From assembly GCF_001306055.1 (NCBI RefSeq), contig NZ_LGHJ01000016.1:30001-62000 (forward strand): DNA of 32,000 bases, read 5' to 3'. The position numbers and the translations under genes were made by a program. This document shows, piece by piece, positions 11,880-28,218 of the stretch; positions within the stretch are counted from its first letter, which is position 1; each line of letters starts with the position of its first letter. This stretch comes from Bellilinea caldifistulae (GTDB lineage: Bacteria > Chloroflexota > Anaerolineae > Anaerolineales > Anaerolineaceae). Below the pieces are notes generated by a model. The model ran no database searches, was not told the DNA's origin, and saw nothing but the letters and a program-made list of their open reading frames with translations.

Positions 11880-12895
11880 ACCGTCAAACTAAAGGGACCA
11901 TAAAAAACGTCGGACGCTGGTTGCCCGGCGTGCTGATCAGTCTGATTGCCTTGTTTGTGGTTTTTCGGCTGGCTCAATGGGATGAATTGGGGCCGGCGAT
12001 TGCCAGAATACCCTTGCTTTTTATTCTGGCAGCAGTGCTCCTGACCCTGTTATTTTTGATGACGCGGGCAGTGGCATGGCGCGTCATTCTGGGCAATCAT
12101 GCCTCAGTCAGCCAGACTTTTTGGGCGATCAATCAGGGTTATCTTTTGAATAACCTGTTCCCTTTCCGGGCGGGTGAATTCGGAAGGGCTTTGCTGTTGG
12201 GGCAGGCTGCTCGCCTGCCGCCTGCCCGTGTGCTTTCCAGTATTGTGATTGAAAGGGCTTTCGATTTGGCAATTGCGGCGGGTTTGTTGCTGGCAACTTT
12301 ACCGCTGGCATTGGGTATGGCGTGGGCGCGTTCGGTTGCCATTTTGACTTTGGGATTGGTGATAGCCGGATTATTGATGTTGTTTCTCATGTCCCGCAAT
12401 CAGCAATGGGTTATTGGTCTGGTGGAAAAAATTGGGGCAAAATGGGGTTTTGTTCGCAGAGTAGTCGTTCCCCAATTAAATGCACTCATGCAAGGGTTAT
12501 CCACCTTGTCCGAACCGCGCCAGTTTCTTCTAAGCCTGTTTTGGATTGGGGTCTCGTGGGGAGTTGCCGTTTCCACTTATTACGTTTTCCTGCTGCCCAT
12601 TGATCCTCAAGCGCCATTCTGGTGGGGCATGTTCACCGATGCGGTTCTGGCAATGGGGATTGCCATCCCCTCGGCACCGGCTGCTTTGGGAACTTTTGAG
12701 GCTTCGATTGTTGGGGCATTGACGATTTTGGGGATTGATCAGACGGCTGCATTGGCGTATGCGATTACCCTTCACTTTATTCAATTCGTTGTTACCGGAA
12801 TTTTGGGTTTGATTGCCCTGGTTCGGCAGGGAAAATCGGTGGGAACATTTCTAAAGGATATTCAAGCCAAAGTCATCAATCCAACTTCATCCTGA
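11876..12895 (+). CDS. UPF0104 / lysyl-PG-synthase-TM-region-like ('flippase-like') polytopic membrane protein
   Basis: 339 aa with about 8 TM segments. It carries the [11 protein letters not shown] motif that I recall as typical of this family. The first in-frame ATG would delete TM1, so the TTG at 11876 (overlapping the lepA stop as TTGA) is the likely start. The exact start is uncertain. Confidence 0.65.
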
Positions 12896-12915
12896 AAATT
12901 GGAGGGAATGGTTTT

Positions 12916-13941
12916 ATGCCGAGAAATTACTTAATCACCGGTGGTGCAGGTTTTATCGGTTCGAATTATGTTGCCCGGCTGCTGCAAAGAGGCGAGCAGG
13001 TGATTGTGTATGATAACCTGTCACGCGCCGGTGCTGTCCGCAACCTGGCCTGGTTGAGAAAGACCTACGGTGAAAGCTCATTTCGGCTTGTTCAGGCAGA
13101 TGTTCGCGATTCTCAGTCACTTCAGGAAGTGGCCCAAGAGGCAGATGTGATTGTGCATCTAGCCGGTCAGGTCGCGGTCACCACTTCCGTCGTTGATCCA
13201 CGCACTGACTTTGAAATCAATGCAGCGGGAACTTTCAATATCTTGGAAGCGGCGCGGCTTTCGGGACGTGACCCAATTGTGATTTATGCATCAACCAACA
13301 AAGTGTATGGGGGGATGGAAGAGGTAAAAGTCAAGGAATTGGAAAGCCGTTATGCGTATGTGGATTATCCCTTTGGCATTCCAGAAACTTTTGGACTGGA
13401 TTTTCATTCCCCTTACGGTTGCTCGAAAGGGTGTGGTGACCAATACACTCGTGACTACGCCCGGATTTATGGCTTGCGGACGGTAGTCATGCGCCAATCC
13501 TGCATTTATGGCACCCGCCAGTTCGGAATTGAAGATCAGGGATGGGTGGCGTGGTTTGTCATCGCAGCGGTTAAACGGCTGCCCATTACAATCTATGGCG
13601 ATGGCAAGCAAGTGCGGGATATTCTTTTTGTTGAAGACTTGTGCGATGTCTATGACCTGGCGATTGAACACATTGATCTTGCGGCTGGTCAGGTCTTCAA
13701 TATCGGCGGCGGAGCCGATTTTACGATTTCCGTTTGGGAAGAATTTGGTCCATTGCTTGAAAAACTGCTCGGTGAAAGTATTCCCGTAAAAAGAGGGGAT
13801 TGGCGGCCGGGTGATCAGCGGGTTTTTATTTCCGATATACGCAAGGCGCAGGAAGTTCTGGGTTGGAAGCCAAAGGTGGGTGTCAAAGAAGGTATTCAGC
13901 GCCTTTTTGAGTGGGTGAAGACCAATCAGGATTTGTTTTAA
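12916..13941 (+). CDS. Extended SDR NDP-sugar epimerase, CDP-paratose 2-epimerase-like
   Basis: 341 aa. It has ITGGAGFIGSNY (Rossmann fold), DNLSRAG, HLAGQVAVTTS, STNKVYG and FHSPYGCSKGCGDQY (YxxxK). Collinear similarity runs throughout to the RfbE-type CDP-tyvelose/paratose epimerase as I recall it. A GGAGGG SD is present. Confidence 0.8.
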   Translation: MPRNYLITGGAGFIGSNYVARLLQRGEQVIVYDNLSRAGAVRNLAWLRKTYGESSFRLVQADVRDSQSLQEVAQEADVIVHLAGQVAVTTSVVDPRTDFEINAAGTFNILEAARLSGRDPIVIYASTNKVYGGMEEVKVKELESRYAYVDYPFGIPETFGLDFHSPYGCSKGCGDQYTRDYARIYGLRTVVMRQSCIYGTRQFGIEDQGWVAWFVIAAVKRLPITIYGDGKQVRDILFVEDLCDVYDLAIEHIDLAAGQVFNIGGGADFTISVWEEFGPLLEKLLGESIPVKRGDWRPGDQRVFISDIRKAQEVLGWKPKVGVKEGIQRLFEWVKTNQDLF

Positions 13942-13946
13942 GTCTT

Positions 13947-15116
13947 ATGCGTATTCTGATTATCCTGACTTATTACCGCCCTCATACCTCAGGGTTGACG
14001 ATTTACGCAGAAAGGTTGGCACAGGCTTTTGCCCGTCGGGGTCACACGGTAACGGTAATGACCTCACAGTATGATAAGTCGCTGCCGTTGGAAGAAATGG
14101 CTGGCGGAGTACGAATTGTGCGTGTGCCGGTTTTCATGCGGGTCAGTAAGGGAGTAATTATGCCTTCCTTTGGAGCAACCGCGAATCGGCTGGTGCGTGA
14201 ACATGATGTGATTCAACTGCACCTACCGCAGTTTGATGCTGCCGGAGTGGCTCTTCGCGGACGGTTATTAAGAAAACCTACCGTAATCACTTACCATTGT
14301 GATTTGAGAATGCCGCCGGGATTACTCAGTTGGGCAGCCAATCAGGCGGTATTGCTGATGAATGAACTGGCAGCCCAATTTACCCATCGAATTGTGACCT
14401 ACACCCAGGATTATGCAGAAAATTCGCCCTACCTGCGACGTTATTTGCACAAATTGAAGGTCATTCCTCCTCCCGTTGAATTGCCACGGGTGACTTCGGA
14501 GGCAGTTCGAGAATTCCGTCAGCGGACAAACCCGCAAGACCGTAAACCTGTGATTGGAATGGCCGCTCGCCTGGCAACCGAGAAAGGCGTGGAAGTGCTG
14601 GTTGAGGCACTGCCAAAGGTGCTGGAAGCCTATCCTCAAGCTCAGGTGCAATTTGCCGGCACTTACCAAAACATTGTGGGAGAAGAGGCGTATTATGCCA
14701 AAATCATGCCGCGCATTGCTCGTTTTCAGCAAATCGGAGCGTGGCAATTCCTTGGTAATCTCTCTCCTGATCAGATGGCTTGTTTTTACCCCAATTTGGA
14801 TGTGCTGGTTTTGCCGTCACTGAACTCAACCGAGGCTTTTGGGCTCGTCCAAATCGAAGCGATGATCAGTGGGACTCCCTCGATTGCTTCCAATTTACCG
14901 GGGGTTCGGCAGCCGGTCAAGATCCATGAGATGGGTAAAGTCGTTGAAATCGGTGACCCCCACAGTCTGGCAGAGGCATTGTTGGAAGTGCTGAGCAACC
15001 GGCAGGCGTTTATACGAGATCCTCAACCGATTCGCCAGCGCTATCTGCCGGATACAATTGCGCAAGAATACGAAAAATTATTCACCGAAATCCAACAAGA
15101 TCTTCGTAGATCCTGA
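13947..15116 (+). CDS. GT4-family (GT-B, retaining) glycosyltransferase
   Basis: The ATG at 13947 gives MRILIILTYYRPHTSGLTIY. An EX7E motif is present (EAFGLVQIEAMISGTP). The upstream extension in the track overlaps the epimerase gene. Confidence 0.8.
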   Translation: MRILIILTYYRPHTSGLTIYAERLAQAFARRGHTVTVMTSQYDKSLPLEEMAGGVRIVRVPVFMRVSKGVIMPSFGATANRLVREHDVIQLHLPQFDAAGVALRGRLLRKPTVITYHCDLRMPPGLLSWAANQAVLLMNELAAQFTHRIVTYTQDYAENSPYLRRYLHKLKVIPPPVELPRVTSEAVREFRQRTNPQDRKPVIGMAARLATEKGVEVLVEALPKVLEAYPQAQVQFAGTYQNIVGEEAYYAKIMPRIARFQQIGAWQFLGNLSPDQMACFYPNLDVLVLPSLNSTEAFGLVQIEAMISGTPSIASNLPGVRQPVKIHEMGKVVEIGDPHSLAEALLEVLSNRQAFIRDPQPIRQRYLPDTIAQEYEKLFTEIQQDLRRS

Positions 15117-15136
15117 TTTTTGAGGTTGAGAAGGCT

Positions 15137-15955
15137 TTGGAACAGACTTCATCCTTCGAAAAAGATTTTTTATGGCTCAATATCCGTGAATTGCCCTATT
15201 TTCGGGGGGTATTGCGTGCGGTTGAAGCCCGTTTCTACCAATCCATTGAATTGGTCGAACCGGTGCTCGATCTGGGTTGTGGAGACGGTCATTTTGCCTC
15301 AATTGCATTTGAAAAACCGCTCACCGTTGGTCTGGATCCGTGGTGGAAACCGGTCAAAGAAGCAGCAGAAAGGGGCACATACCGCCTCACATTAAGGGGC
15401 AGCGGTTCGACAATGCCCTTTGAAGATGAATCTTTCGCCAGTGTCGTCAGTAATTCAGTCCTGGAGCACATTCCCAATTTAATGCCCGTTCTGGAGGAAA
15501 CCGCGCGGGTTCTCAAACCGGGTGGATTGTTTGTGTTCTGTGTTCCCAATCATCGTTTCCTGGGAAGTCTTTCTATTGCCCAATTTTTGGATCGAACAGG
15601 CTTGAAAAGCGCAGCAAAGCGCTACCGGGGATTTTTCAACCGGATTTCTCGACATTACCATTGTGACGATTTTTCTACATGGAAGGACCGCCTGACCCGC
15701 ACCGGCTTTGAAGTGCTTCGCCATTGGGATTACTTTTCGCCGCGTGCTTTAGCCCTTCTGGAATGGGGGCATTATTTTGGTTTGCCTTCTTTGTTCAGCC
15801 GCTGGTTGTTCAAACGCTGGATTCTGGTCAGTCAGCCTTGGAATCTGGCAATCACTCGTTCGGTGTGCAAGTCGGTTTATCTGGAAACACCCCAACAAAA
15901 GGAGGGGGTTTACTCCTTTTATATTGCCCGAAAAATATCTAAACCAAACACCTGA
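15137..15955 (+). CDS. Class I SAM-dependent methyltransferase (Methyltransf_11-like)
   Basis: 272 aa. It has VLDLGCGDGHF (motif I), FASVVSNSVLEHI and LKPGGLFVF. A TTG start is inferred because there is no upstream in-frame ATG. Confidence 0.75.
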   Translation: MEQTSSFEKDFLWLNIRELPYFRGVLRAVEARFYQSIELVEPVLDLGCGDGHFASIAFEKPLTVGLDPWWKPVKEAAERGTYRLTLRGSGSTMPFEDESFASVVSNSVLEHIPNLMPVLEETARVLKPGGLFVFCVPNHRFLGSLSIAQFLDRTGLKSAAKRYRGFFNRISRHYHCDDFSTWKDRLTRTGFEVLRHWDYFSPRALALLEWGHYFGLPSLFSRWLFKRWILVSQPWNLAITRSVCKSVYLETPQQKEGVYSFYIARKISKPNT

Positions 15956-16034: not shown

Positions 16035-18254
16035 ATGGACGAATCAAAAGAACCCACTGTATTGGATTATGTCAAAGCGTTATTGATGCCGTGGAAAGGT
16101 AAACCACCGGCGCTTTCAGCGAAACAACCGACGGCTGATCAATCCTTGGTTGAACCAAAAGAAGATCTGAGTACCTCTCCTGATATTACAACGCTGGAAA
16201 TGAAGGTAGAGGAAAAGGGCGAACCGGTGGTATTCCCCTCGTCGGCTGAGGAACGATTAAAACTGCCGATTGGGTGGCGGACCTTGCTGGCATTTGTCCT
16301 GGCAGTAATTGGGCAGTCTTTTCTGGAACCTCCCCGTCAGCAGGTCAGTGTTGCACTGATCTTTTATGGTCTGGCGGTTGTCGCTCTGATATTTGCAGTG
16401 ATTTCTAAAGAGTGGTTATTAGCGGAATACGCGGATCATACGGCTACTCCAATGGCGGTTACCGTAAATCGGAATCCGATTCTGCTTTCACTACCTTTGT
16501 TGCTGCTGGCCTTTATCTTTTTTAGTGGTAATCGTTTTACTACGCTTAACCTGACTCTCTGGCTGGCAGGCACAATATCACTTGTGGCCGGGTTTTACCT
16601 TCCCTCTCGAACCCGGTTAAGCCTCAAAAGCAAAATCCGCTCATTTTTCCTTGCTCCGCAAGTGATCATCCGAATCACACCCTGGAGTATTCTGGTTCTG
16701 CTGGCCATCGGGTTGGTGGTGTTCTTCCGTTTTTATCGGTTGAGTGAAGTGCCGGGCGAGATGTTCAGTGACCATGCCGAAAAATTGATGGATGTAGCGG
16801 ATGTGCTGCAAGGACAAACATCCATTTTCTTCCCACGAAACACTGGACGTGAAGCAATTCAAATGTATTTGACTGCGCTGATTGCAATTGTTGCAGGAAC
16901 AAAACTTTCCTTCATGAGTCTGAAAATTGGGACAGCCCTGGCGGGTGTCCTGACTCTCCCTTTTATTTACTTTTCAGGAAGGGAAATTGGCGGAAATCGG
17001 GTTGGATTGCTGGCGTTTGTGCTGGCAGGTGTTGCTTATTGGGCAAATGTGATTGCTCGAATTGGGCTGCGATTCCCGCTGTATCCATTATTCGCGGCTC
17101 CAACTCTTTACTTTCTGGTCAAGGGATTGAAATACCGCAGCCGAAATGACTTTATCTGGGCAGGAATTTTCCTTGGATTGGGACTGCATGGTTACAGCCC
17201 GGCGCGTCTTGTTCCCATGGTGGTTGTTGCGGCCGTCATAATTTATCTGATTCATCGTCAATCTGAGGGTAACCGCCGCGAAGCAGTAATTGCTCTCATT
17301 CTTCTGGCGATTACCTCTCTGGCCGTGTTTCTGCCTTTGCTGCGCTATGCGCTCAGCGATCCAGAAATGTTTGCCTATCGGGCGTTGACTCGACTGGGTG
17401 AAACCGAAACGGTTTATCCGGCCCCCGTTGGGATTGTTTTCCTGAATAACTTGTGGAAGTCCATGATCATGTTCTTCTACAAAAACGGCAACATCTGGGT
17501 TCATTCGATTCCTAATCGGCCGGCGCTGGATGTGATTAGTGCGGCTTTGTTTTTCCTTGGAAGTACATTGGTGGTCATTCGTTACATTCGTCAGCGTCAC
17601 TGGCTTGATTTGTTCTTACTGGTATCCATTCCATTGCTGATGATGCCCTCAATTCTCTCGCTGGCGTTTCCGGAAGAAAATCCCTCGCTAAACCGCAGCG
17701 GTGGGGCGATCATCCCTGTGTTCATTTTAGCGGCAGTGGGATTGGATGCCGTGATTCGGTCTATCGAGCGGCGTTACTCGAACGGTTATCAACGCATCAT
17801 CCCGCTTGGAGTAACCGCTTTATTGATATTTTTCATCAGTTCGGCGAATTACGATTTGGTGTTTCGGCAGTTTGATCGGCAGTTTATGGCCGGGGCATGG
17901 AACACTTCCCAAATTGGGGCGGTGATCCGAGGTTTCAGCGAAGCACAGGGTAACCCAGATACGGCTTATGTGGTACCTTACCCGCACTGGGTAGATACCC
18001 GCCTGGTGGGTATCAATGCCGGTTTTCCCCTGAAGGACTATGCGTTGTGGCCGGATCAATTTGAAACGACTTTGAGTGAGACACGGGCTAAATTGTTTGT
18101 GATTAATCCGCGTGATGAGGATGCCGTCCATAAGTTGCAGGAGCTGTACCCGACTGGGTGGTTGTATTTTTATGATGTGGAGTTAGAAGGAAAGGATTTT
18201 CTGCTTTATTTTGTACCCCCTGCCGGGACGGAAGATGGAACAGTGCAGCCATGA
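16035..18254 (+). CDS. GT-C fold, ArnT/PMT (GT39/GT83)-like polyprenyl-phosphate-sugar-dependent glycosyltransferase candidate
   Basis: 739 aa and polytopic. After an N-terminal extension (hydrophilic ~80 aa, then 3-4 extra TMs), the core shows FFRFYRLSEVPGEMFSDHAEK (first-loop acidic motif), a helix rich in small residues, and GLGLHGY. The C-terminus is a soluble domain of about 130 aa. Confidence 0.65.
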   Translation: MDESKEPTVLDYVKALLMPWKGKPPALSAKQPTADQSLVEPKEDLSTSPDITTLEMKVEEKGEPVVFPSSAEERLKLPIGWRTLLAFVLAVIGQSFLEPPRQQVSVALIFYGLAVVALIFAVISKEWLLAEYADHTATPMAVTVNRNPILLSLPLLLLAFIFFSGNRFTTLNLTLWLAGTISLVAGFYLPSRTRLSLKSKIRSFFLAPQVIIRITPWSILVLLAIGLVVFFRFYRLSEVPGEMFSDHAEKLMDVADVLQGQTSIFFPRNTGREAIQMYLTALIAIVAGTKLSFMSLKIGTALAGVLTLPFIYFSGREIGGNRVGLLAFVLAGVAYWANVIARIGLRFPLYPLFAAPTLYFLVKGLKYRSRNDFIWAGIFLGLGLHGYSPARLVPMVVVAAVIIYLIHRQSEGNRREAVIALILLAITSLAVFLPLLRYALSDPEMFAYRALTRLGETETVYPAPVGIVFLNNLWKSMIMFFYKNGNIWVHSIPNRPALDVISAALFFLGSTLVVIRYIRQRHWLDLFLLVSIPLLMMPSILSLAFPEENPSLNRSGGAIIPVFILAAVGLDAVIRSIERRYSNGYQRIIPLGVTALLIFFISSANYDLVFRQFDRQFMAGAWNTSQIGAVIRGFSEAQGNPDTAYVVPYPHWVDTRLVGINAGFPLKDYALWPDQFETTLSETRAKLFVINPRDEDAVHKLQELYPTGWLYFYDVELEGKDFLLYFVPPAGTEDGTVQP

Positions 18255-21200
18255 GTGAGGGTGTTTCCACCACGAAAAAAGTGCAAAGCCGGCTTTTTAT
18301 TGAGCCGATTCGTCTAAGCTGGCTTTTGGACATTTGCCTGCTTGGCGTTTTACTCGTTGGATTAATCCTCCGGTTTAATGGTTTGGAATGGGGGGAAGGA
18401 CAATATCTTCATCCAGATGAGCGATTTCTGGTGTGGGTTACGGCCGATTTGAAACCCGTTGATCGAGTGGGAGATTATTTTGATACGGCTCAATCCACCC
18501 TGAACCCTCACAATGTCGGTCATCGCTTTTTTGTTTACGGCACATTCCCGATTTTTCTAACCCGCTACCTGGCCGAATGGGCTTTTTCCAGTAACGGTTG
18601 GGAACAAATAATTGTGGTTGGCAGGAGTTTGAGCGCGCTGTTTGACCTGTTGACGGTGCTGTTGGTTTTTTTGATTGGGGAACGCCTTTGGGGAAAAGTC
18701 GCTGGGATTTTAGGGGCAACATTTTCTGCGCTGGCTGTGTTGCAAATTCAGCAGGCTCATTTTTATACGACAGATTCTTTTGCTACTTTTTTCTCAACGC
18801 TGGCGATCTATTTTGCCGTCCGCTTGGCGACCCTGACGGAAAAACCGGTAGAAGAGCAATCCTCCCGTAATTTGGTTGAAAAAATTGATGCTCGGGTGGT
18901 GTGGAATTGTGCCGTCTTTGGGGCGGCAGCAGGTCTGGCGGCCGCCTGTAAAATCCACGTTGGAGTTGTGGCATTAATCCTGCCGGGTGTTCTGTTGTGG
19001 GGGTATTTTAATCCGAGACGCGAAAACAGGTTTTTTACACCGATGGAGGTTTTGGGCGGTTTGCTGATCGGTGGGCTCAGCGCATTTGTGATCTTTCGGC
19101 TGTTCCAGCCATATGCTTTTCAGGGGCCGCAGGTTTGGAATGTCCTCCCAAATCCGCTGTGGGTGGAGAATCTGAAAAGTTTACTGGCACAAACCGGCGG
19201 TGATGTGGATTTTCCACCGGCATTGCAATGGGCGCGTCGTCCCATTACTTTTTCCTTTCAAAACATGGTGCTCTGGGGAATGGGACTCCCAATGGGCTTG
19301 TTGGCCTGGACAGGAATGATCTGGCTGGGTTGGCAGTTGATCAAGAACCGCTTCACCCATCCTTTTACTGCTGTTTGGGGGTGGACGGTCTTGTTCTTTA
19401 TCTGGCAGTCCTTGCAGGGCAATCCGACGATGCGTTATCAGCTGCCGATTTATCCAATTTTGGCATTGACCGCTGGCTGGACAATATTCGCTTTGTGGGA
19501 AAAAGCAAATCACGTTTACCGGAACAACCCGGTGAAAATCCGGCAAAGTCGTTGGGGGATCATTGGGCTAGGTCTGATTGTTATGGGGTTGACAGCCGGA
19601 TGGGCGGTTGCCTTTGATGGGATTTACACGCGCCCGGTGACGCGGGTTGAGGCATCACGCTGGATTTATCAAAACGTACCGGGAGCGGTGAACCTGACCA
19701 TTCGTATGGAAAACGAAGAGTATCATCAACCGCTGGCTTTTACTTCGCTGATGGTTCTACAGCGAGGTGAAGCAATCCATACCAGTTTTCGCGCTGCTCA
19801 AAGCGGGACGATAAGTGAAATTTACTTTGACAACATCCGCGACTTGACCCTCAATGATAATCCCAAGACATTGCTTGTCACGATTCAGGAAGCCGGAGAG
19901 GTCTATGCTGCCAAAGGCTCAGGTATGCTGATGCAAACCTTTGCGGAAAATCAGCCCCGTCCCCACAGGCTTGTTCTGGATTTTCCACTGGCAGTGGAGG
20001 CGGGTAAGCTGTACACGATTTCGGTTTGGTTTGAGGGGGCAGAAACAGCCCTCTCTTTGCAGGGTGGGGGTGCGGTACTGATCCGTAATGAGGAGGGTAC
20101 ATTCCGCCAGCTTTTGGTAGATTGGACGGAATCTGTCCGGTCAAACCGCCCTCTGGAAATCACTTTCCAGCCACTTCGATCCGGACTCTTGAACGAGATT
20201 GGATTTTACCGAATTGTGGATCGGACTGCATCGCAAGGGATGAAAACCTTTCGGATCGAGGTTTTTGACCGCAGTATTGCTGGGCAACCGCTCAGCAACG
20301 CAATTCTGACTGATGATTTTACGGCTGAAGGGCTGGATGCACGAGGAAAAAGCGTGAGTTTAGCACTAAATCCACCTTTGAAAGTGGAGGCGGGAAAAAC
20401 TTACACCATTCAAATGGATCTGGTGGAGGGGGAAGGAGAGATTGTCTTTTTCCCTGCTGCGGGTGTAAATGAAACGGTTTGGGACGACGGCTTACCTTTA
20501 CGCCTGGAAGGGTTTGACCCATATGGAGGGATTTATCCGCGTGATTTGACACTTGATTTATATGCCGATGATTCGGTGGAAAAGCGTGAGCAGATGATTG
20601 ATTTGCTCAACCGGGCGGATTATATCTATATCTCATCCAACCGGCAGTGGGGAACAACTACCCGATTACCTGAACGTTACCCGCTGACCACCGCTTACTA
20701 TCGCTACTTGCTGGGGTGTCCGGCGGAGAAAGACCTTTTATGGTGCTACCGGGTTGCCCAACCGGGCATGTTCAACGGTCAACTGGGTTTTGAACTGGTA
20801 GCCGTTTTTCAGTCCAACCCGAAATTGGGGGGAGTCGAAATCAACACCCAATTTGCAGAAGAGGCTTTCACGGTTTACGACCATCCCAAAGTGCTGATTT
20901 TCAAAAAAATTGAGGGATTTGATCCCCTTCAAACAGCGCGTCTTTTGAGAAGTGTGGATTTATCAGCAGTGATCCACGTCCTTCCCGGAAGGGCACCTTC
21001 TTACCCGGCCAACCTGATGCTGCCGGATCATCTGCTGGCATTACAGCGCAGCGGCGGGACCTGGGCTGAGTTATTTGACAGCAATGGTCTGCTGAACCGT
21101 TTTCCGATGTTGGGCTGGTTGATTTGGTATCTTGTCATCAGTGTAGTGGGGTGGATTGCCTATCCGATTTTGCGCGTAGCCATGAAGGGGTTGCCGGACC

Positions 21201-23551
21201 ATGGTTTTCCCCTTAGCAAGATTGCTGGCTTACTTTTCTTATCCTGGGGGGTATGGCTGATTGCGTCCCTGGGAGGCAGGTTTGAGCGTAGCACAATAAC
21301 AATCGTATTCTTGATTCTGCTGCTATTCAGTGGGTTGGCAACTTTCTGGCAGCGTAATGATTTAATTGAGGAATTTCGCGAGCGAAAAGCATATTATCTG
21401 CGGGTTGAAGGGATTGGGCTGGCATTTTTTATATTCTTCACTTTGATTCGGATTGGTAACCCGGATTTGTGGCATCCCGCCTTTGGCGGCGAGAAGCCGA
21501 TGGACTTTGCCTACTTTAACGCCATACTGAAAAGCACTGTTTTTCCCCCATACAATCCATGGTACAGTGGTGGATACATCAACTATTATTACTACGGATT
21601 TGTGCTGGCAGGGGTACCAACCAAATGGCTGGGAATTATCCCTTCAATAGCCTACAACCTGATCCTGCCGACGATGTTTGCTACCTTTGCCTTGGGCGCA
21701 TTCAGCGCGGGTTGGAACATTGCTGCTCATTTTCTCAAAGAGAGCAGACAATCCGATGAAGGGGTTGGGGGAAAGCGGTCTGTCTTTGGAAAACCGTTTT
21801 GGATGGGGCTTGGGTCCGCCATTGCAGCCTTGATTCTGGGCAATCTGGGCACTGCCAGGATGATCTGGCACGGTTTGATGCGCCTTGCGATGAGTGGTTC
21901 ATCACTGGAAGAGGCAAACTTTTTCTTGAAACTTTCCTGGACAATTCAGGGACTTTCTCGCTTTTTAGCCGGAGCGCGGCTGCCTTACAGCACAGGTGAC
22001 TGGTACTGGATTCCCAGCCGGGCATTGCCGGGTGAAGCCATTACGGAATTCCCGTTTTTTACATTCTTATATGCGGATCCCCACGCTCACCTGTTTGCGC
22101 TTCCCTTAACGATGTTGGCTCTGGGCTGGTGTCTTTCGGTGGTTTTTGGTCAATGGCGTTGGGGATTCAATCAGGTAAAAACTGTCCCAGCCTTTCTTCT
22201 TTCGCTACTGGTGGGCGGACTGGTCATTGGGGTTTTACGACCAACCAACACGTGGGATATGCCCACTTATCTGGGATTGGGGGTTTCTGCTCTGGTCTAC
22301 TCCGCCATTCGTTATGATAGCAGTTGGGATGCTTACCTGAAAGGTATTCCGGTTTGGTTAAAACGGTTGGCGGTTGGTCTGGGGGCCAGCTTGGTTTTGA
22401 CCGGGTTATCATTTCTCTTATTCCTGCCGTATTCGCAATGGTACGCGCAGGGTTATGGTAGTGTGCAACTATGGGAAGGAAGCCGCTCCCCGGTTGCTTC
22501 CTATCTGACCCATTGGGGTTTGTTTTTCTTTGTGATTGCCTCGTGGTTGGTATATGAAACCATCCACTGGATGGCGAACACTCCGCTCTCGTCGTTGCAA
22601 AAATTGCGTCCATGGCGGTTCTGGATTTTCAGTGGGCTGGGGATTTATCTGTTAGCCGTTGTTTTGTTAAATGTTTCTTTGAAAGTCGAAATTGCCTTTT
22701 ACCCGCTCACTATAGCAGTGTGGTGTTTGATTTTGCTGCTTCGACCTTATCAACCGGATGCCAAACGCGCTGTACTGTTTCTGATTGGTACAGGAGTCAC
22801 CCTGACGCTGATGGTGGAAGTTATCGTATTGGTGGGTGATATTGGCCGGATGAATACTGTGTTCAAGTTTTACTTGCAGGCCTGGAATTTGCTGGCCATC
22901 AGCGCGGCAGCGGCGACCGGCTGGTTGCTGCCAGCCATTGAGTCCCAATGGAAATCCGGCTGGAAGCCCGTCTGGCAGTTTGTACTGAGTGCTTTATTGG
23001 TTGCAGCGTTGTTATATCCGCTGATGGCGGGGGCAGCCAAGGTTCGCGATCGAATGAGCAGTATTGCTCCACATGGATTGGATGGGATGGCGTATATGCG
23101 TACAGCGGAGTATTCCGATCAGGGGCGCACGATGGATCTCAGTCAGGATTACCGCGCCATACGTTGGATGCAGGAGAATGTGAAAGGTTCGCCGGTGATT
23201 GTGGAAGCCAACACACCATTGTATCGGTGGGGATCGCGTTTTTCGATTTACACCGGGCTGCCAACCATCATCGGCTGGGACTGGCATCAACGCCAGCAAC
23301 GAGCAGCGGTGCAGAATGATTTTACCGTTCAAAACCGCATTCTGGATGTTGCCGAAATTTACAACAGTCTCTCGAAGGAGGTCGTCAGAGAACTTTTAGA
23401 CCGATACGCTGTACAATATATTATTGTGGGGCAGTTGGAACAGGCTTATTACGAGCCGGCAGGACTATCCAAATTCCCCCAATGGGATGGTGAACTTTGG
23501 AAAGAAGTTTACCGCGATATGGACACGGTGATTTATGAGGTAATCCCTTGA
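18251..23551 (+). CDS. Giant 1766-aa membrane protein: N-terminal GT-C-like module, duplicated beta-rich extracytoplasmic modules, and a C-terminal DUF2298/'Chlor_Arch_YYY' module
   Basis: The start overlaps the previous stop (ATGA). Residues 1-460 are multi-TM with YLHPDERF in the first loop. Residues ~461-950 are soluble and contain a tandem repeat. Residues ~952-1766 are collinear with the 856-aa ORF at 23917 (LPDHGF, EKPMDFAYFNAILKS, FPPYNPW, NYYYYG, EFPFFTFLYADPHAH, NTWDMPTYLGL, GRMNTVFKFYLQAW). Confidence 0.8.
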   Translation: MSEGVSTTKKVQSRLFIEPIRLSWLLDICLLGVLLVGLILRFNGLEWGEGQYLHPDERFLVWVTADLKPVDRVGDYFDTAQSTLNPHNVGHRFFVYGTFPIFLTRYLAEWAFSSNGWEQIIVVGRSLSALFDLLTVLLVFLIGERLWGKVAGILGATFSALAVLQIQQAHFYTTDSFATFFSTLAIYFAVRLATLTEKPVEEQSSRNLVEKIDARVVWNCAVFGAAAGLAAACKIHVGVVALILPGVLLWGYFNPRRENRFFTPMEVLGGLLIGGLSAFVIFRLFQPYAFQGPQVWNVLPNPLWVENLKSLLAQTGGDVDFPPALQWARRPITFSFQNMVLWGMGLPMGLLAWTGMIWLGWQLIKNRFTHPFTAVWGWTVLFFIWQSLQGNPTMRYQLPIYPILALTAGWTIFALWEKANHVYRNNPVKIRQSRWGIIGLGLIVMGLTAGWAVAFDGIYTRPVTRVEASRWIYQNVPGAVNLTIRMENEEYHQPLAFTSLMVLQRGEAIHTSFRAAQSGTISEIYFDNIRDLTLNDNPKTLLVTIQEAGEVYAAKGSGMLMQTFAENQPRPHRLVLDFPLAVEAGKLYTISVWFEGAETALSLQGGGAVLIRNEEGTFRQLLVDWTESVRSNRPLEITFQPLRSGLLNEIGFYRIVDRTASQGMKTFRIEVFDRSIAGQPLSNAILTDDFTAEGLDARGKSVSLALNPPLKVEAGKTYTIQMDLVEGEGEIVFFPAAGVNETVWDDGLPLRLEGFDPYGGIYPRDLTLDLYADDSVEKREQMIDLLNRADYIYISSNRQWGTTTRLPERYPLTTAYYRYLLGCPAEKDLLWCYRVAQPGMFNGQLGFELVAVFQSNPKLGGVEINTQFAEEAFTVYDHPKVLIFKKIEGFDPLQTARLLRSVDLSAVIHVLPGRAPSYPANLMLPDHLLALQRSGGTWAELFDSNGLLNRFPMLGWLIWYLVISVVGWIAYPILRVAMKGLPDHGFPLSKIAGLLFLSWGVWLIASLGGRFERSTITIVFLILLLFSGLATFWQRNDLIEEFRERKAYYLRVEGIGLAFFIFFTLIRIGNPDLWHPAFGGEKPMDFAYFNAILKSTVFPPYNPWYSGGYINYYYYGFVLAGVPTKWLGIIPSIAYNLILPTMFATFALGAFSAGWNIAAHFLKESRQSDEGVGGKRSVFGKPFWMGLGSAIAALILGNLGTARMIWHGLMRLAMSGSSLEEANFFLKLSWTIQGLSRFLAGARLPYSTGDWYWIPSRALPGEAITEFPFFTFLYADPHAHLFALPLTMLALGWCLSVVFGQWRWGFNQVKTVPAFLLSLLVGGLVIGVLRPTNTWDMPTYLGLGVSALVYSAIRYDSSWDAYLKGIPVWLKRLAVGLGASLVLTGLSFLLFLPYSQWYAQGYGSVQLWEGSRSPVASYLTHWGLFFFVIASWLVYETIHWMANTPLSSLQKLRPWRFWIFSGLGIYLLAVVLLNVSLKVEIAFYPLTIAVWCLILLLRPYQPDAKRAVLFLIGTGVTLTLMVEVIVLVGDIGRMNTVFKFYLQAWNLLAISAAAATGWLLPAIESQWKSGWKPVWQFVLSALLVAALLYPLMAGAAKVRDRMSSIAPHGLDGMAYMRTAEYSDQGRTMDLSQDYRAIRWMQENVKGSPVIVEANTPLYRWGSRFSIYTGLPTIIGWDWHQRQQRAAVQNDFTVQNRILDVAEIYNSLSKEVVRELLDRYAVQYIIVGQLEQAYYEPAGLSKFPQWDGELWKEVYRDMDTVIYEVIP
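19793..20065 (+). repeat. Intragenic protein repeat, module 1 (...SGTISEIYFDNIRD...DFPLAVEAGKLYTISVWFEG)
   Basis: Aligns with module 2. Both contain the nucleotide string GTGGAGGCGGG(T/A)AA, encoding VEAGK (19994 and 20384). Confidence 0.6.
20171..20455 (+). repeat. Intragenic protein repeat, module 2 (...SGLLNEIGFYRIVD...NPPLKVEAGKTYTIQMDLVEG)
   Basis: A diverged tandem copy of module 1. The period is about 130 aa. Confidence 0.6.
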
Positions 23552-23571
23552 ACACACAACAAACTTCCGAC

Positions 23572-23898
23572 ATGATTTATCACATTGCGGAACAAAAAGA
23601 GTGGCTAAAAGGTATCGAGTTGGGCTCATACCGGTCCGATTCTCTGAGGGTTGAAGGTTTCATCCATTGTTCTACGCGTGAACAGGTCATGGAAGTAGCC
23701 GAGAGATTATTCTCTGATCGGACGGATGTGGTTGTGTTGGAAATTGACCAGGAGTCCTTACCGGTAGAGGTCAGGTACGAAATCGCTCCAAATGGAAACG
23801 CTTATCCTCATGTATATGGAGAAATCCCGCTTGAAGCAATCCGGCGAGTTCTGGTTCTCGATTGGAAAAATCGCAGGTTGGAAGATTTATCTGCCTGA
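23572..23898 (+). CDS. DUF952 family protein
   Basis: The ATG at 23572 gives MIYHIAEQKEWL...EGFIHCST...YPHVYGEIPLEAI. Both the size (108 aa) and the motifs are as I recall for DUF952. The TTG at 23548 in the track is a less likely start. Confidence 0.7.
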   Translation: MIYHIAEQKEWLKGIELGSYRSDSLRVEGFIHCSTREQVMEVAERLFSDRTDVVVLEIDQESLPVEVRYEIAPNGNAYPHVYGEIPLEAIRRVLVLDWKNRRLEDLSA

Positions 23899-23916: not shown

Positions 23917-26487
23917 ATGAGCCAAATTCTGATGACATTGATCTGGTATTTGATGGTTACGGCGGCGGGTTACTTAACGCTGCCTCTGGCTTTTCGCTTT
24001 CTGAAGTTTTTACCGGATCGCGGCTTTACCTTCAGCCGTTCGCTGGGATTGCTGCTGTGGGGATACATCTTTTGGCTGCTGACTACTTTTGGTCTGTTAC
24101 AAAACAATGCCGGAGGGGTTCTTTTCGGACTGATTTTGCTGGCGGGTGTGAGCGCCTTTTTCATGCGCGGAGGTTGGTTTGAGTTCAAGGACTGGTTCGG
24201 TACGCAGAGGCGGTTAATTTTAACGGCTGAAAGTCTGTTTTTGATTGCTTATCTTTCCTGGACGGTGGTAAGGGCTGCTAATCCCGAAATCATCTATACC
24301 GAGAAGCCGATGGAATTGGCCTTTATCAATGCTATCTTGCGCTCACCATCCTTTCCTCCCTTCGATCCATGGCTGGCAGGATATGCAATCTCCTATTATT
24401 ACTTTGGTTACGTTATTGTCGCGATGTTGATCCACCTGAGCGGGGTGCCCAGTTCGATTGGGTTCAATTTGGGGATTGCCATGTGGTTTGGGTTGACTGC
24501 ACTGGCTGCGTATGGGGTTTTGTTCAATCTATTGAGCGGTATCCTGTCTACGAATAAACCGGCGGAATCAAACCGAAAAGCGGTTGGCTGGGCGTTGTTG
24601 GCACCGCTGTTTATCCTGATTGTCAGCAATCTGTCCGGCCTGCTGGACATCCTGCATGCGCGGGGCATCTTCTGGCAGCGTAATCCACAAGGGGTTCTGG
24701 AATCATCCTTTTGGAAATGGCTGGGAATTCAGGAGTTTGACCAACCCCCGCCGGAACCGCTTTCGTGGACGCCCAAGCGTACTTACTGGTTGTGGTGGCG
24801 CGGCTCACGCGTATTGCAGGATTTTAACCTGCTCAATCAGCGCGAAGAAGTGATTGATGAATTTCCTTTCTTCTCCTATCTGCTGGCAGATATGCACCCG
24901 CATGTCCTGGGAATGCCGTTTGTCCTTTTGGCTGCCGGTTTAGCATTGAATTTTTACTTTTCTTTCAAAAAACAATCGCCCCCGGAACCTTCGGTTTTGA
25001 ACTGGCTCAAAGATCCACATATCTGGTTAAGCGCCTTGATTTTTGGCGGTCTTTCTTTTTTGAATACATGGGATTTTCCCATCTATCTGGGGTTGTTTGC
25101 AGGAGTATATGTCTTCTACCGTTATTTGCACAACGGGTGGGGGTGGCAGCGGGTTGGGGATTTTGTGTTTGTGGCAATAACGGTGGGAATTCTGGGAATT
25201 TTGCTGTATTTGCCGTTTTATTTGGGTTTTTCTTCGCAGGCAGGCGGTTTTCTGCCGAGCCTGATTTTTCACACCCGCGGGGTGCATTTCTGGGTCATGT
25301 TTGCGCCTTTGCTGTTACCCATTTTGTTCTGGCTGCTTCTTCAGGGTGGAGGTTACCTGCGGCCGGGGTTGCGCTGGGGTGTGCTGCTCGGATCCGCTAT
25401 TGTAGCGGCGGGTTGGATTTTGATGCTGATCGCCAGTAAGGTGATCGAACTGGCCGGATTAATTGGACAAACGTGGATGACTGCTGCTGACACCAATCTG
25501 GCAAGGATGGGGCAAACGCTGACCAGTTTGAGCGGCTTGTTTTTCATCAAACAGGGCGGATCGGGTACGGAATTGTTTCAGGCTGCTTTACTGCGGCGGA
25601 TTAGCGCCCCGGGTACGTGGCTCACATTGATGATTATTTTGATTTTCGTATTTGCCACGATTGTCACTTTGCGGCGTTTATATGGTTTTTCTCTGGCGTC
25701 AGAAAATGATCCTGTTCGGTCATTGCCGGAAGAAGATCAAAACCGGGGTTTTGTATTATTGTTGATTTTGCTGGGTGCGGGTTTGACTCTCGCACCGGAG
25801 TTTTTCTATTTACAGGATGATTTTGGCACCCGAATGAACACAATCTTCAAGTTCTATTTTCAGACATGGATTTTGTGGGGAATTGCGGCCGCCTATTCGA
25901 GTGCCATTCTTTTGCAGCGATTCCACGACGGACGGGGAGGGGTGGTAAAAATTGTCTGGGTGATCCTGATGGCATGTTCTTTGATTTATCCGGGGGTGAT
26001 GCTACCGGCCAAAACGGGGCTACTCCGCGGCCAGCCCGTTTCATTGACTCTGGATGGAAAAGCTTACTTACAGCGCGATGAACCGGATGAATGGCAGGCA
26101 TTCCAGTTTTTATGGGAGATGCCTTTGGGAAATGTAGTTGAAGCGGTCGGTCCACAATACAACCCTCAATTCGCAAGGGTTGCGACCCATGCCGGTCAAC
26201 CCGGTTTGTTGGGTTGGGAAGGCCACGAAATTCAGTGGCGGGGTACTGCCCGGGAGATGGGCTCACGCCGGGTAGATATTGAGACTCTCTATCAGACCAG
26301 CGATTGGTTGAGGGCTAGGGAAATTATCCAGCAATATGGCATCCGTTATATTTATATCGGGCCGGTAGAACGAAGTGCCTATCGTGTTTCCGAAAATAAG
26401 TTTTCGGCAAATTTGGGTTTGCTATTTGCTAATTCCAATGTGCGGATATACGAAGTGCCGGATGCACTGGTGGAAAAAACACCCTGA
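23917..26487 (+). CDS. DUF2298/'Chlor_Arch_YYY' polytopic membrane protein (single-module form)
   Basis: 856 aa. It has LPDRGF, EKPMELAFINAILRS, FPPFDPW, SYYYFG (24391-24408), EFPFFSYLLADMHPH, NTWDFPIYLGL and TRMNTIFKFYFQTW. The C-terminus is a soluble domain ending IRYIYIGPVERSAY...VRIYEV. It is a paralogue of the C-terminal half of the 1766-aa protein. Confidence 0.8.
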   Translation: MSQILMTLIWYLMVTAAGYLTLPLAFRFLKFLPDRGFTFSRSLGLLLWGYIFWLLTTFGLLQNNAGGVLFGLILLAGVSAFFMRGGWFEFKDWFGTQRRLILTAESLFLIAYLSWTVVRAANPEIIYTEKPMELAFINAILRSPSFPPFDPWLAGYAISYYYFGYVIVAMLIHLSGVPSSIGFNLGIAMWFGLTALAAYGVLFNLLSGILSTNKPAESNRKAVGWALLAPLFILIVSNLSGLLDILHARGIFWQRNPQGVLESSFWKWLGIQEFDQPPPEPLSWTPKRTYWLWWRGSRVLQDFNLLNQREEVIDEFPFFSYLLADMHPHVLGMPFVLLAAGLALNFYFSFKKQSPPEPSVLNWLKDPHIWLSALIFGGLSFLNTWDFPIYLGLFAGVYVFYRYLHNGWGWQRVGDFVFVAITVGILGILLYLPFYLGFSSQAGGFLPSLIFHTRGVHFWVMFAPLLLPILFWLLLQGGGYLRPGLRWGVLLGSAIVAAGWILMLIASKVIELAGLIGQTWMTAADTNLARMGQTLTSLSGLFFIKQGGSGTELFQAALLRRISAPGTWLTLMIILIFVFATIVTLRRLYGFSLASENDPVRSLPEEDQNRGFVLLLILLGAGLTLAPEFFYLQDDFGTRMNTIFKFYFQTWILWGIAAAYSSAILLQRFHDGRGGVVKIVWVILMACSLIYPGVMLPAKTGLLRGQPVSLTLDGKAYLQRDEPDEWQAFQFLWEMPLGNVVEAVGPQYNPQFARVATHAGQPGLLGWEGHEIQWRGTAREMGSRRVDIETLYQTSDWLRAREIIQQYGIRYIYIGPVERSAYRVSENKFSANLGLLFANSNVRIYEVPDALVEKTP

Positions 26488-26496
26488 GATGTCAAT

Positions 26497-28218
26497 ATGA
26501 TGAAAAAGAACTCATTTTCTCTAAATGGTGAAAAGGTTTTATATGGATTGATCTTGATCATTGGGCTTGCTTTACGATTAATTCAACTGGGCAAGCTGCC
26601 GCTCAGTGATGAAGAGGCCCGGCTGGCTTTGCAGGCGTTTGGGTTAGCCAGCGGTGAAAGTTCGCCATTTTTCAATCCGGACGGCGGTTATTTGATTACG
26701 ACGACTGGATTATTTTTTATCTTTTCTAAAAGTGAATTTCTGGCTCGCCTGATCCCGGCTTTGGCAGGAACGCTGATTTGCCTGATTCCGTTGGCATTTC
26801 AAAGACTTCTGGGAAGAAAAACGGCTTTGATTGCCGCGTTCGGGCTGGCATTGGACGGCGGCTGGCTTGCGGCTTCCCGGCAAGCCGGCAGTCACACCTG
26901 GGCAGTCTTGTTCTTATTGGCTGTAATTTGGGCTGTCTCCTCTCGGCGCTGGAAAATGGCAGGTATTTTTAGCGGTTTACTGTTACTGGGAGGGGTTGAG
27001 GTTTGGAAAGGTTTAATCCCTTTGGGGGTTGCTATTGGGGTTTATAATCTCTGGTTCAGGTGGGAAAGTTTTGCGTGGAACGACGTATGGCTATCGTTTA
27101 GGAATAATTGGAAAGAATTTCTGACTTGGGCGGTCGGGGCTTTGCTGGTTCTTGGGAGCTTGTTCTTAATCCTGCCGACCGGATGGAGCGCAATGGGAGG
27201 CGGTCTGATTTCTTATCTGCGTGGTTGGAACAACCCTTCCGGTGTTTCAGTGGGGATGATCTTAACAGCCATGCTGATTTATCAGCCGATCAGCACCCTG
27301 TTTGGTTTAATTGCTTCCCTCCGGCAGATCAAAAAATCTGTGAGTCTGGAACTCTTTTTGACGATTTGGAGTTTTTTTGCCCTGATTCATTGCTTCCTCT
27401 ATCCAGCGCGTGAAGTTCTGGATGTGTTATGGGTATCGCTTCCGCTTCTCGGTTTGGCGGCGCGACTTTTATCATCTCTGTTGCGTTTTAATTTTGATCA
27501 ACGCATTGCAGCACTGATATACGGGGTGGTGGTTTTGATATTTTTGATGTTTACTTCACAAAATATCATGCGCCTATTCAGCCCGGGGCGGGTGGCAGTC
27601 AATACTCAACCTGAAATCATTGCTATTCTGGCTGCTTTGTTGTTTGTGATCATTTCCGTTATTTTGATCGGGTGGGGATGGTCTACCCGTGTGGCTGGTT
27701 ATGGGGTCACATGGGGACTACTGGTATGGCTGATGCTCTTTTGGCTGTCTGGGAGCTTTCATGCAGCCGGTTTGGGCGAAAATCCGGAAACAAATCCCTT
27801 TCGACGGGGCTGGTTCATCAGCGAAGCGGATTTGCTAAAAGATACCATTGGTGATTTATCGGAACTGAATGTGCGCTCACGCACGGGATTGGATGTAATG
27901 GCGATTGGATTGGATCAACCGGCAATGCGCTGGTTCGCCAGAGAATTCACCAATTTTAAGTTTGAAAATACTTTTCAACCCCAAATTCAGAGTTCAATTG
28001 TTCTAACAGGATCATCGGAGGGGGTCGTTTTTGGGGAAAATTATCGTGGGCAAGATTTCCATTGGCAAGTACAGCCAATTTGGGATCTAATGACAGCCAA
28101 GGAATGGATGCAGTGGGCAATTTTCAAAATTGCTCCCCTGGAAAACAAGATGATCTTCTTATGGGCGAGAGAAAGTCTCTTCCCGGGTAGTGAAATTTCA
28201 AACGAGGTGCAACCTTGA
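26497..28218 (+). CDS. Polytopic membrane protein with a GT-C-like N-terminus (possible partner family of the YYY proteins)
   Basis: 573 aa. It has LYGLILIIGLALRLIQLGKLPLSDEEARLA (a TM then a DEE loop, as in ArnT/PMT-type enzymes), about 12 further TMs, and a C-terminal soluble domain of about 140 aa. Family assignment is tentative. Confidence 0.5.
   Translation: MMKKNSFSLNGEKVLYGLILIIGLALRLIQLGKLPLSDEEARLALQAFGLASGESSPFFNPDGGYLITTTGLFFIFSKSEFLARLIPALAGTLICLIPLAFQRLLGRKTALIAAFGLALDGGWLAASRQAGSHTWAVLFLLAVIWAVSSRRWKMAGIFSGLLLLGGVEVWKGLIPLGVAIGVYNLWFRWESFAWNDVWLSFRNNWKEFLTWAVGALLVLGSLFLILPTGWSAMGGGLISYLRGWNNPSGVSVGMILTAMLIYQPISTLFGLIASLRQIKKSVSLELFLTIWSFFALIHCFLYPAREVLDVLWVSLPLLGLAARLLSSLLRFNFDQRIAALIYGVVVLIFLMFTSQNIMRLFSPGRVAVNTQPEIIAILAALLFVIISVILIGWGWSTRVAGYGVTWGLLVWLMLFWLSGSFHAAGLGENPETNPFRRGWFISEADLLKDTIGDLSELNVRSRTGLDVMAIGLDQPAMRWFAREFTNFKFENTFQPQIQSSIVLTGSSEGVVFGENYRGQDFHWQVQPIWDLMTAKEWMQWAIFKIAPLENKMIFLWARESLFPGSEISNEVQP

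Follow-up and report, generated by a model that had tools for sequence, protein, structure and literature searches.

Does the long open reading frame (ORF) at 18251..23551 of the stretch analysed here encode one genuine protein, and what might a single polypeptide carrying two glycosyltransferase-like membrane modules do? The stretch, hereafter the window, comprises 32,000 nucleotides (nt) of Bellilinea caldifistulae (Anaerolineae; RefSeq assembly GCF_001306055.1, contig NZ_LGHJ01000016.1, positions 30,001 to 62,000); coordinates below are those of the window, and features lie on its forward (+) strand unless marked (-). The original prediction, made from the sequence of the window, had described the product of 1766 amino acids (aa) as a fusion of two different modules resembling glycosyltransferases of the GT-C fold. 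This description held: the modules fall into distinct families by hidden Markov model (HMM) and profile comparison, each matches solved GT-C folds, and the fusion is conserved.

The ORF begins with ATG and contains no internal stops. Both the 1766-aa frame and the proposed ATGA overlap at 18251–18254, in which its start overlaps the TGA of the preceding 739-aa gene (16035..18254), are present in the window sequence. Its stop overlaps the TTG start (23548) of a small DUF952 gene (116 aa, 23548..23898) located between the fusion and a gene for an 856-aa protein. Every peptide string quoted in the prediction was found in the translation at its expected place (GEGQYLHPDERF at residues 48–59, FFVYGTFPIF at 93–102, GRSLSALFDLLTVLLVFLIGERL at 124–146, ADYIYISSN at 789–797 and FTVYDHPKVLIFKK at 873–886). 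A frameshift or stop splitting the ORF had been named as a finding that would speak against a fusion; none was found, the frame being intact in an independent assembly and in a related genome. GCA_001050215.2 (Bellilinea caldifistulae, contig DF967971.1) encodes the identical 1766-aa protein, as does an independent Logan assembly (run DRR198553), and ORFs of exactly 1766 aa occur in the same gene context in GCA_040756615.1 and SRR29635772; the protein used to look up the contigs of the latter two was identical in both. The GCA_040756615.1 copy, which keeps the ATGA overlap, is 83% identical to that of the window, with 609 synonymous-only against 299 amino-acid-changing codon differences. Segment by segment, the first and second membrane domains are 76% and 87% identical, the soluble parts 75% and 94%, the linker 82% and the C-terminal domain 94%. 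The fusion ORF is under purifying selection over its full length, linker included.

Hydropathy and the secondary structure of AlphaFold2 (AF2) models both reproduced the three-part layout that had been proposed, with transmembrane (TM) helices up to residue 460, a soluble region at 461–950 and TM helices again from 952. The models were built in two segments on alignments of 100 and 93 sequences; that of residues 1–950 has a pLDDT of 89.3 and a pTM of 0.84, and that of residues 900–1766 a pLDDT of 92.4 and a pTM of 0.93.

The N-terminal module (module 1, residues 1–460, 18251..19630) is predicted to be a GT-C membrane domain of about 11 TM helices with its N-terminus inside. Its likeness to ArnT and PMT enzymes, as originally proposed, was borne out by profile scores and by the fold of the model. 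When scanned alone against Pfam, the module passed the cut-offs of PMT (PF02366; 26.0 versus 22.7 bits) and PMT_2 (PF13231; 26.2 versus 26.1 bits); neither family is listed when the full 1766-aa protein is scanned at E ≤ 0.01. By these scores module 1 is a marginal PMT/PMT_2 member. The whole-protein scan also gave a faint match of TIGR04154 (archaeo_STT3) to the N-terminal 460 residues, at 21.7 bits versus a cut-off of 450. TIGR03663 (Agl23) had no match to module 1 or anywhere else in the 1766-aa protein, and no MIR domain was matched in any Pfam scan of the full protein or its parts. A Foldseek search with the model of module 1 resulted in 29 matches at E ≤ 1e-3, all to GT-C enzymes with probability 1.00, including AglB (E 2e-9), STT3, Pmt4, ArnT, ALG9, EmbB/EmbC, AftD, PglB and AftA; PIG-U, a non-catalytic GT-C-fold subunit (7wld), was also found, with probability 0.99. 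In a profile comparison with hhalign, the 739-aa PMT_2 protein encoded upstream also proved distantly related to module 1 (probability 78%, E 1.9e-5), but no link emerged between module 1 and a 573-aa membrane protein encoded downstream.

GT-C enzymes are recognised by conserved acids in a long first outer loop following TM1. In module 1 this loop (residues 43–116) includes short helices and carries the motif HPDERF (residues 54–59, 18410..18427), with D56 and E57 as the putative catalytic acid pair. H54, P55, D56, E57 and R58 are invariant in both alignments examined (77 and 100 sequences), and F59 is invariant in the former and nearly so in the latter. Further invariant residues of the module are D132, Q167, H170, D175, K234, R283, R330, R395 and Y396, to which D320 may be added as invariant in the 77-sequence set and nearly so in the 100-sequence set.

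The C-terminal module (module 2, residues 951–1766) is of a different kind. Pfam DUF2298 (PF10060) matches residues 997–1548 (E 5e-110, 369.2 bits versus a cut-off of 27.8, profile positions 2–488 of 488), and the NCBIfam profile TIGR03662 (Chlor_Arch_YYY) matches residues 955–1764 (E 2e-153, 512.7 versus 300.25 bits, positions 4–726 of 727); judged by these profiles, module 2 is a bona fide full-length DUF2298/TIGR03662 member. The prediction had called it a complete second module, collinear with the neighbouring 856-aa protein, and so it proved. BLASTP aligned residues 957–1355 with 8–403 of that protein (30% identity, E 3e-40) and residues 1523–1764 with 628–847 (29%, E 1e-19), and profile comparison of the two gave a probability of 100% (E 1.4e-53), in keeping with the full-length family matches. 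Three TM helices (residues 951–1034, 21101..21352) precede the DUF2298/Chlor_Arch_YYY core of about 13 TM helices (residues 1035–1599, 21353..23047), which is followed by a C-terminal outer alpha/beta domain (residues 1600–1766, 23048..23548). Foldseek matched module 2 to DPY19 (E 1e-6), STT3A, STT3B and AftA with probability 1.00 and E values from 1e-6 to 5e-5, at low global TM-scores of 0.25–0.39. The C-terminal 167 residues matched the C-terminal globular domain of AglB-S2 (3vu0) with probability 1.00 and a TM-score of 0.56 on the target. Across both models, the matches of probability 1.00 were solely GT-C proteins or GT-C parts.

Profile-profile comparison of modules 1 and 2 yielded no convincing similarity (probability 17–20%). 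They are therefore taken to represent different GT-C families, and an origin by tandem duplication was rejected.

How could two enzymes that both start inside be accommodated in one chain? Counting helices by DSSP on the AF2 models gives 11 in module 1 and 16 in module 2, that is 27, in agreement with the predicted figure of more than 25. With the N-terminus inside, the models place the middle soluble region and the C-terminal domain outside. The three helices at the beginning of module 2 would bring the chain from the outside to the inside and so would resolve the topological conflict of fusing two enzymes whose N-termini lie inside; the stand-alone 856-aa paralogue begins exactly at the first of them, which fits this layout. 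The fourth helix of module 2 (1035–1069) is in the role of the GT-C TM1 and is followed by a long outer loop (residues 1070–1116, 21458..21598) with the sequence NPDLWHPAFGGEKPMDF...YYYYG. The short inner loops contain 19 lysine and arginine residues, and outer loops adding up to the same length contain 9.

In the first outer loop of module 2, D1072, H1075, E1081 and D1085 are invariant across the fused family, and E1081 and Y1112–1114 are invariant in stand-alone DUF2298 proteins too. The YYYxG motif (Y1112, Y1113, Y1114 and G1116) is likewise invariant with the stand-alone paralogues included. A second conserved region on the predicted outer face, EFPFFTFLYADPHAH (residues 1266–1280, 22046..22090), is a candidate for binding metal or phosphate; its residues E1266, D1276, H1278 and H1280 do not vary in either fused or stand-alone DUF2298 proteins. 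Altogether, the invariant residues common to module 2 and stand-alone DUF2298 proteins are E1053, R1067, E1081, Y1112–1114, E1266, D1276, H1278, H1280, N1333, D1336 and R1533. When the conserved polar residues are placed on the models, H54–R58, Q167, H170, D175, K234, R283, D320, R330, R395 and Y396 of module 1 lie on or near the predicted outer face, as do D1072, H1075, E1081, D1085, E1266, D1276, H1278, H1280, N1333, D1336 and R1533 of module 2. The two active sites postulated in the prediction thus find their putative counterparts in invariant acidic and basic residues on this face of both modules. Since each module keeps its own set, both are probably active enzymes, rather than an enzyme joined to a relic.

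The soluble middle region is composite, consisting of an alpha/beta domain (residues 461–479 and 741–890) interrupted by a beta-sandwich region (480–740). The first segment of the outer domain (461–479, 19631..19687) contains the helix EASRWIYQNVPG, and the second (741–890, 20471..20920) carries VWDDG, ADYIYISSNRQWG and FTVYDHPKVLIFKK. This second segment is the best-conserved part of the protein: its column conservation is 77%, and the orthologue in GCA_040756615.1 is 94% identical to it. The insert (480–740, 19688..20470) matches DUF4082 at 29.2 versus a cut-off of 28.4 bits and is possibly glycan-binding; its column conservation is only 22%, and it is missing altogether from a 2434-aa relative (P0326). 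Within it, an extra beta unit (553–679, 19907..20287) is missing from at least 70% of homologues and explains most of the length excess over the usual 1600–1660 aa. The conserved linker (891–950, 20921..21100), in which G936 and W938 never vary and F942 and N949 are at least nearly invariant, is modelled confidently against module 2 over residues 920–950.

Resemblance between the tail of the middle region and that of the C-terminal module had also been pointed out. Profile comparison of the middle tail (741–890) alone with the C-terminal domain gave no match; once the insert was removed, hhalign aligned the middle alpha/beta domain with the C-terminal one collinearly (local E 1.3e-3, probability 18%). 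The two domains have the strings A-x-RW-x-x-NV-x-G, ANE..W, GLP and YI-x-I in common, and in the AF2 models their helices and strands follow one another in the same sequence. This modest evidence indicates that the two tails probably resemble each other, and the models suggest for each module an AglB-like layout, in which an outer globular domain comes after the membrane core.

In order to get insight into the distribution of the fusion, we searched protein collections with its N-terminal parts. A word-indexed search with residues 1–950 retrieved 1819 relatives, the top 120 of which are mostly 1600–1661 aa long and carry both PMT/PMT_2 and DUF2298; relatives are named 'DUF2298 domain-containing protein' or 'YYY domain-containing protein' and come from Anaerolineae or Chloroflexota. 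This list is incomplete at the top, as it contains nothing above 46% identity even though the identical protein and orthologues of 75–83% identity are in the same collection. In an exhaustive HMMER search, residues 1–460 matched 774 clusters (formed at 50% identity) at E ≤ 1e-30; many of these have 1570–1900 aa, and a few have up to 2434 aa. With a single genome taken for each species, relatives are encoded in at least 590 stretches, the best 80 of which were surveyed as loci. All 80 derive from Chloroflexota metagenome-assembled genomes, mostly labelled Anaerolineae or a subgroup thereof, and most match approximately residues 20–1765. The motifs of the N-terminal module, the junction and the C-terminal module lie in one stop-free frame in 70 of the loci, and two further loci show a motif variant within a single long frame, so that 72 of the 80 keep both modules in frame; of the remainder, seven are cut by contig ends or partial and one is broken near the N-terminus. 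A split between the modules was seen in none of the 80. Fusion is the normal state of this gene across Anaerolineae and not a peculiarity of the Bellilinea caldifistulae genome.

Some relatives go further. In P0326 (2434 aa; GCA_964407215.1, locus L088, 8001..15305) a PMT-like module is followed by two DUF2298 units; no separate DUF2298 gene comes after this ORF, the second unit being fused in that position. In P0353 (2315 aa) a PMT_2 protein like the 739-aa neighbour, module 1 and DUF2298 are combined in one product. If real, these larger fusions constitute Rosetta-stone evidence that the GT-C proteins of the cluster act together.

How, then, does the fusion compare with characterised GT-C systems? 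The STT3/AglB/PglB group (GT66) provides the best structural matches of module 1 (5gmy and 7e9s, E ~2e-9) and, with 9n9j and 6s7t, some of the best of module 2, in addition to the match of the C-terminal domain to 3vu0. The likeness extends to the overall plan, in which a core of 13 helices leads into an outer alpha/beta globular domain open to beta-rich insertions. However, a pattern search found no WWDYG motif in the fusion, only VWDDG (743–747) and GWDWHQ (1675–1680); the match to TIGR04154 is far below its cut-off, there is no Pfam STT3 match, and no similarity exists at the sequence level. Moreover, the helices of module 1 number about 11, three additional ones precede the core of module 2, and two units occupy one chain. 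Neither module qualifies as STT3/AglB/PglB or Agl23.

PMT (GT39) and ArnT (GT83) resemble module 1 in that it passes the Pfam cut-offs when scanned alone and most of its homologues carry PF02366 or PF13231; its helices are about 11 as in PMTs, and a 'DE' acid pair is located in the first outer loop. The PDE-x-R-aromatic string is similar to what we take to be the N-terminal motif of Escherichia coli ArnT. PMTs operate as dimers (Pmt1-Pmt2, 6p25; Pmt4, 9i5k; both among the structural matches). Module 1 differs from them in having no MIR domain but a large outer domain of alpha/beta and beta-sandwich parts instead, in scoring barely at the cut-off, and in having as its covalent partner a member of an unrelated GT-C family and not a paralogue. 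The DUF2298/TIGR03662 family, of which module 2 is a full-length, high-scoring member with YYYxG, here appears as the C-terminal half of a fusion; it has neither an assigned function nor a solved structure. The description of TIGR03662 mentions multi-copy architectures.

EmbA/EmbB/EmbC, AftA and AftD are large GT-C enzymes with outer carbohydrate-binding beta domains that build cell-wall glycans, some of them as dimers, and Emb/Aft proteins are matched by both modules with Foldseek probability 1.00. They differ from the fusion in having one GT-C core per chain, global TM-scores are 0.2–0.35, and no DprE-like epimerase genes were seen in the window. The likeness also includes a decaprenyl-phosphate phosphoribosyltransferase-like gene in the window. 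This encodes a UbiA-family protein (3360..4229 (-)) scoring 279.6 bits versus a cut-off of 234 with the NCBIfam profile of that name, lies ~14 kilobases from the cluster and adjoins genes for mevalonate kinase and an archaeal-type isopentenyl phosphate kinase (2396..3355 (-) and 1596..2399 (-)). A polyprenyl-phosphate pentose donor would suit GT-C enzymes of the Emb/Aft type. The top match of module 2, finally, is the C-mannosyltransferase DPY19 (7zlg, E 1.1e-6, probability 1.00); TM-scores are 0.26–0.35 and identity 10–12%, and DPY19 has no AglB-like C-terminal domain.

The fusion gene is part of a cluster with the conserved order LepA, flippase-like protein, SDR sugar enzyme, GT4 glycosyltransferase, methyltransferase, PMT_2 protein, fusion, DUF2298 protein, 573-aa protein and Cmk. 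In the window, the genes for the flippase-like protein (TIGR00374), the SDR sugar epimerase/dehydratase, the GT4 glycosyltransferase and the methyltransferase occupy 11876..15955. They are followed by the gene for the 739-aa PMT_2 protein, the distant homologue of module 1 that is fused in P0353. This protein has ~215 extra N-terminal residues with several TM helices ahead of its GT-C core, and its first outer loop reads PGEMF versus PDERF in module 1, the first acid being replaced by glycine. Downstream of the fusion, the DUF952 gene is present in Bellilinea-like genomes (the window, L006 and L007) and absent from the same cluster in L003–L005 and L088. The 856-aa protein (23917..26487) is a stand-alone, full-length DUF2298/TIGR03662 paralogue. 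The 573-aa membrane protein (26497..28218), a constant member of the cluster, is weakly Agl23-like at its N-terminus: TIGR03663 matches the first ~130 residues only (43.2 bits versus a cut-off of 126.25), and no Pfam family matches. BLASTP of the fusion against the 739-aa and 573-aa proteins gave no significant matches.

GT-C enzymes use polyprenyl-phosphate sugar donors, catalyse transfer on the outer face of the membrane and in several cases operate as dimers. By analogy with these enzymes, and going by the models, we consider it likely that the ORF encodes a single protein, with about 27 helices, in which two different GT-C enzymes are joined covalently and act consecutively or cooperatively on the same acceptor. 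Module 1 would start inside, cross the membrane 11 times and end in an outer alpha/beta domain with its variable insert; the conserved linker and three extra helices would then lead into the 13-helix DUF2298 core and the AglB-like outer alpha/beta domain of module 2. Each module would take a sugar from a polyprenyl-phosphate carrier at the outer membrane face, and two consecutive or cooperative transfers would be made onto the same cell-envelope acceptor, be it a glycan or a protein. Because the fusion and its linker are conserved and further neighbours are fused to it in some relatives, we argue that the modules act on the same acceptor. The fusion would represent a fixed, covalent version of the Pmt1-Pmt2, Pmt4-Pmt4 and EmbC2 dimers. 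The sugar epimerase/dehydratase, GT4 and methyltransferase of the cluster, together with its flippase-like and Agl23-like proteins, may supply and translocate the lipid-linked intermediates. A 'prime and extend' mode of action is compatible with the data, but is a conjecture.

Several points weigh against this explanation. The cluster showed no polyprenyl-phosphate sugar synthase (GT2), and DUF2298 is mentioned in two papers only, both in passing. The three-module fusions are known from metagenome assemblies; with neighbouring genes sharing 4 nt, one wrong base could be enough to produce a fusion of this kind. The helix count, and hence the sidedness, comes from DSSP on models and includes two helices of just 14 residues each. 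Searches of the PDB by sequence with each half and with the 77-sequence profile found nothing meaningful, and the GT-C assignment of both modules rests on predicted folds with low global TM-scores (0.2–0.56). Therefore, the two modules are regarded as remote, structurally unsolved GT-C families.

The acceptor might more specifically be protein, in which case the fusion would be an oligosaccharyl- or mannosyl-transferase-like machine modifying secreted or envelope proteins. This special case of two linked enzymes would be consistent with the protein-modifying GT-Cs (AglB, STT3, Pmt4 and DPY19) that head the Foldseek matches of both modules, and with the resemblance of the C-terminal domain to the AglB globular domain, which holds the acceptor-binding motif. 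W744-D745-D-G (residues 744–747, 20480..20491; W744 and D745 invariant) and G-W-D-W-H-Q (residues 1675–1680, 23273..23290) loosely recall WWDYG. WWDYG itself is absent, however, as is a MIR domain, the archaeo_STT3 score is a small fraction of the cut-off, and since ArnT, ALG9, Emb and Aft proteins also match with probability 1.00, the order of matches does not decide the acceptor. We regard a dedicated protein-glycosylation role as possible but rather unlikely.

Still less probable, in our view, is a division of labour in which one module, probably DUF2298, performs the transfer and the other binds, scrambles or flips the lipid-linked donor and passes it on, or is a non-catalytic scaffold. 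For archaeal Agl23, a GT-C-like protein (TIGR03663), translocation of lipid-linked oligosaccharide in proteoliposomes has been reported (PMC11182771); Agl23-like and flippase-like TIGR00374 proteins are encoded in the same cluster, and non-catalytic GT-C folds do exist, PIG-U of the GPI transamidase being among our Foldseek matches. Yet module 1 keeps its D56/E57 acid pair and outward lysine and arginine residues, invariant or nearly so in 100 sequences, it has no TIGR03663 match, and module 2 is conserved equally well, all of which is more in line with two linked enzymes. The last alternative, that two adjacent genes were joined through a missed frameshift or stop, is refuted for practical purposes: long-read metagenome assemblies do contain shorter products resembling stand-alone N-halves (P0089, P0117 and P0070), but the halves in P0117 and P0070 continue in another frame at the junction, the contig of P0089 (judged without reading its junction) has several other broken genes including LepA, the window ORF is identical in two independent assemblies and 1766 aa long in two more of a related Bellilinea-like lineage, and a single frame spans the junction in 72 of the 80 species-level loci.

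It had been suggested that orthologues split into two genes could provide a Rosetta-stone argument; no true split was found, two of the apparent ones being frameshifts and the third lying in a broken contig. P0117 and P0070 had been taken as stand-alone N-halves with a separate DUF2298 gene and were rejected upon reading of the junctions, and P0089 was rejected as a true split on account of its contig. All three apparent N-halves are artefacts or pseudogenes. In locus L005 the other reading frame continues right after KVLIFKK at the junction, the GT-C fusion being the only gene seen broken, and in L004 the epimerase gene is broken as well. L003, L004 and L005 (ERZ25039603, ERZ25039483) are long metagenome contigs with frameshifted genes, several of them in L003 and L004 (LepA, epimerase and GT-C genes); through such frameshifts, protein databases acquire spurious 'stand-alone' domain proteins. 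Separate DUF2298 and PMT2/PA14 neighbours are listed for another Chloroflexi genome in the appendix of PMC8756737, but their orthology could not be established.

The 1766-aa Bellilinea orthologues are named 'DUF2298 domain-containing protein' in RefSeq, and a literature search on DUF2298, PF10060, TIGR03662 and tandem or fused GT-C proteins found no study of the family or architecture. The fusion family is thus already in the databases under uninformative names; what it represents is a conserved multi-core GT-C fusion, neither a new kind of enzyme nor unique to this genome. The solved structures returned by our searches have one catalytic membrane core per GT-C chain, several of them as dimers. 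A conserved fusion of two, and sometimes three, GT-C cores fixes a defined stoichiometry and orientation, and is a good structural target for the study of cooperation between GT-C enzymes.

For DUF2298, a large family without known function, the fusion assigns functional partners. It also marks a conserved cluster for envelope-glycan synthesis or protein glycosylation in Anaerolineae, filamentous bacteria that abound in anaerobic digesters and sediments and about whose envelope chemistry little is known. More speculatively, and with the odds against it, the whole cluster from LepA to Cmk could be a class-wide, undescribed extracytoplasmic glycosylation pathway of Anaerolineae with a covalent tandem of two (in some genomes three) AglB-like units at its core; DUF2298 would then be a new glycosyltransferase family, and the fused modules would channel the growing glycan or protein acceptor between active sites, as the first known multi-site GT-C 'assembly line'. 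Since Bellilinea caldifistulae has been brought into culture, the prediction of two linked GT-C enzymes is testable in the organism itself.

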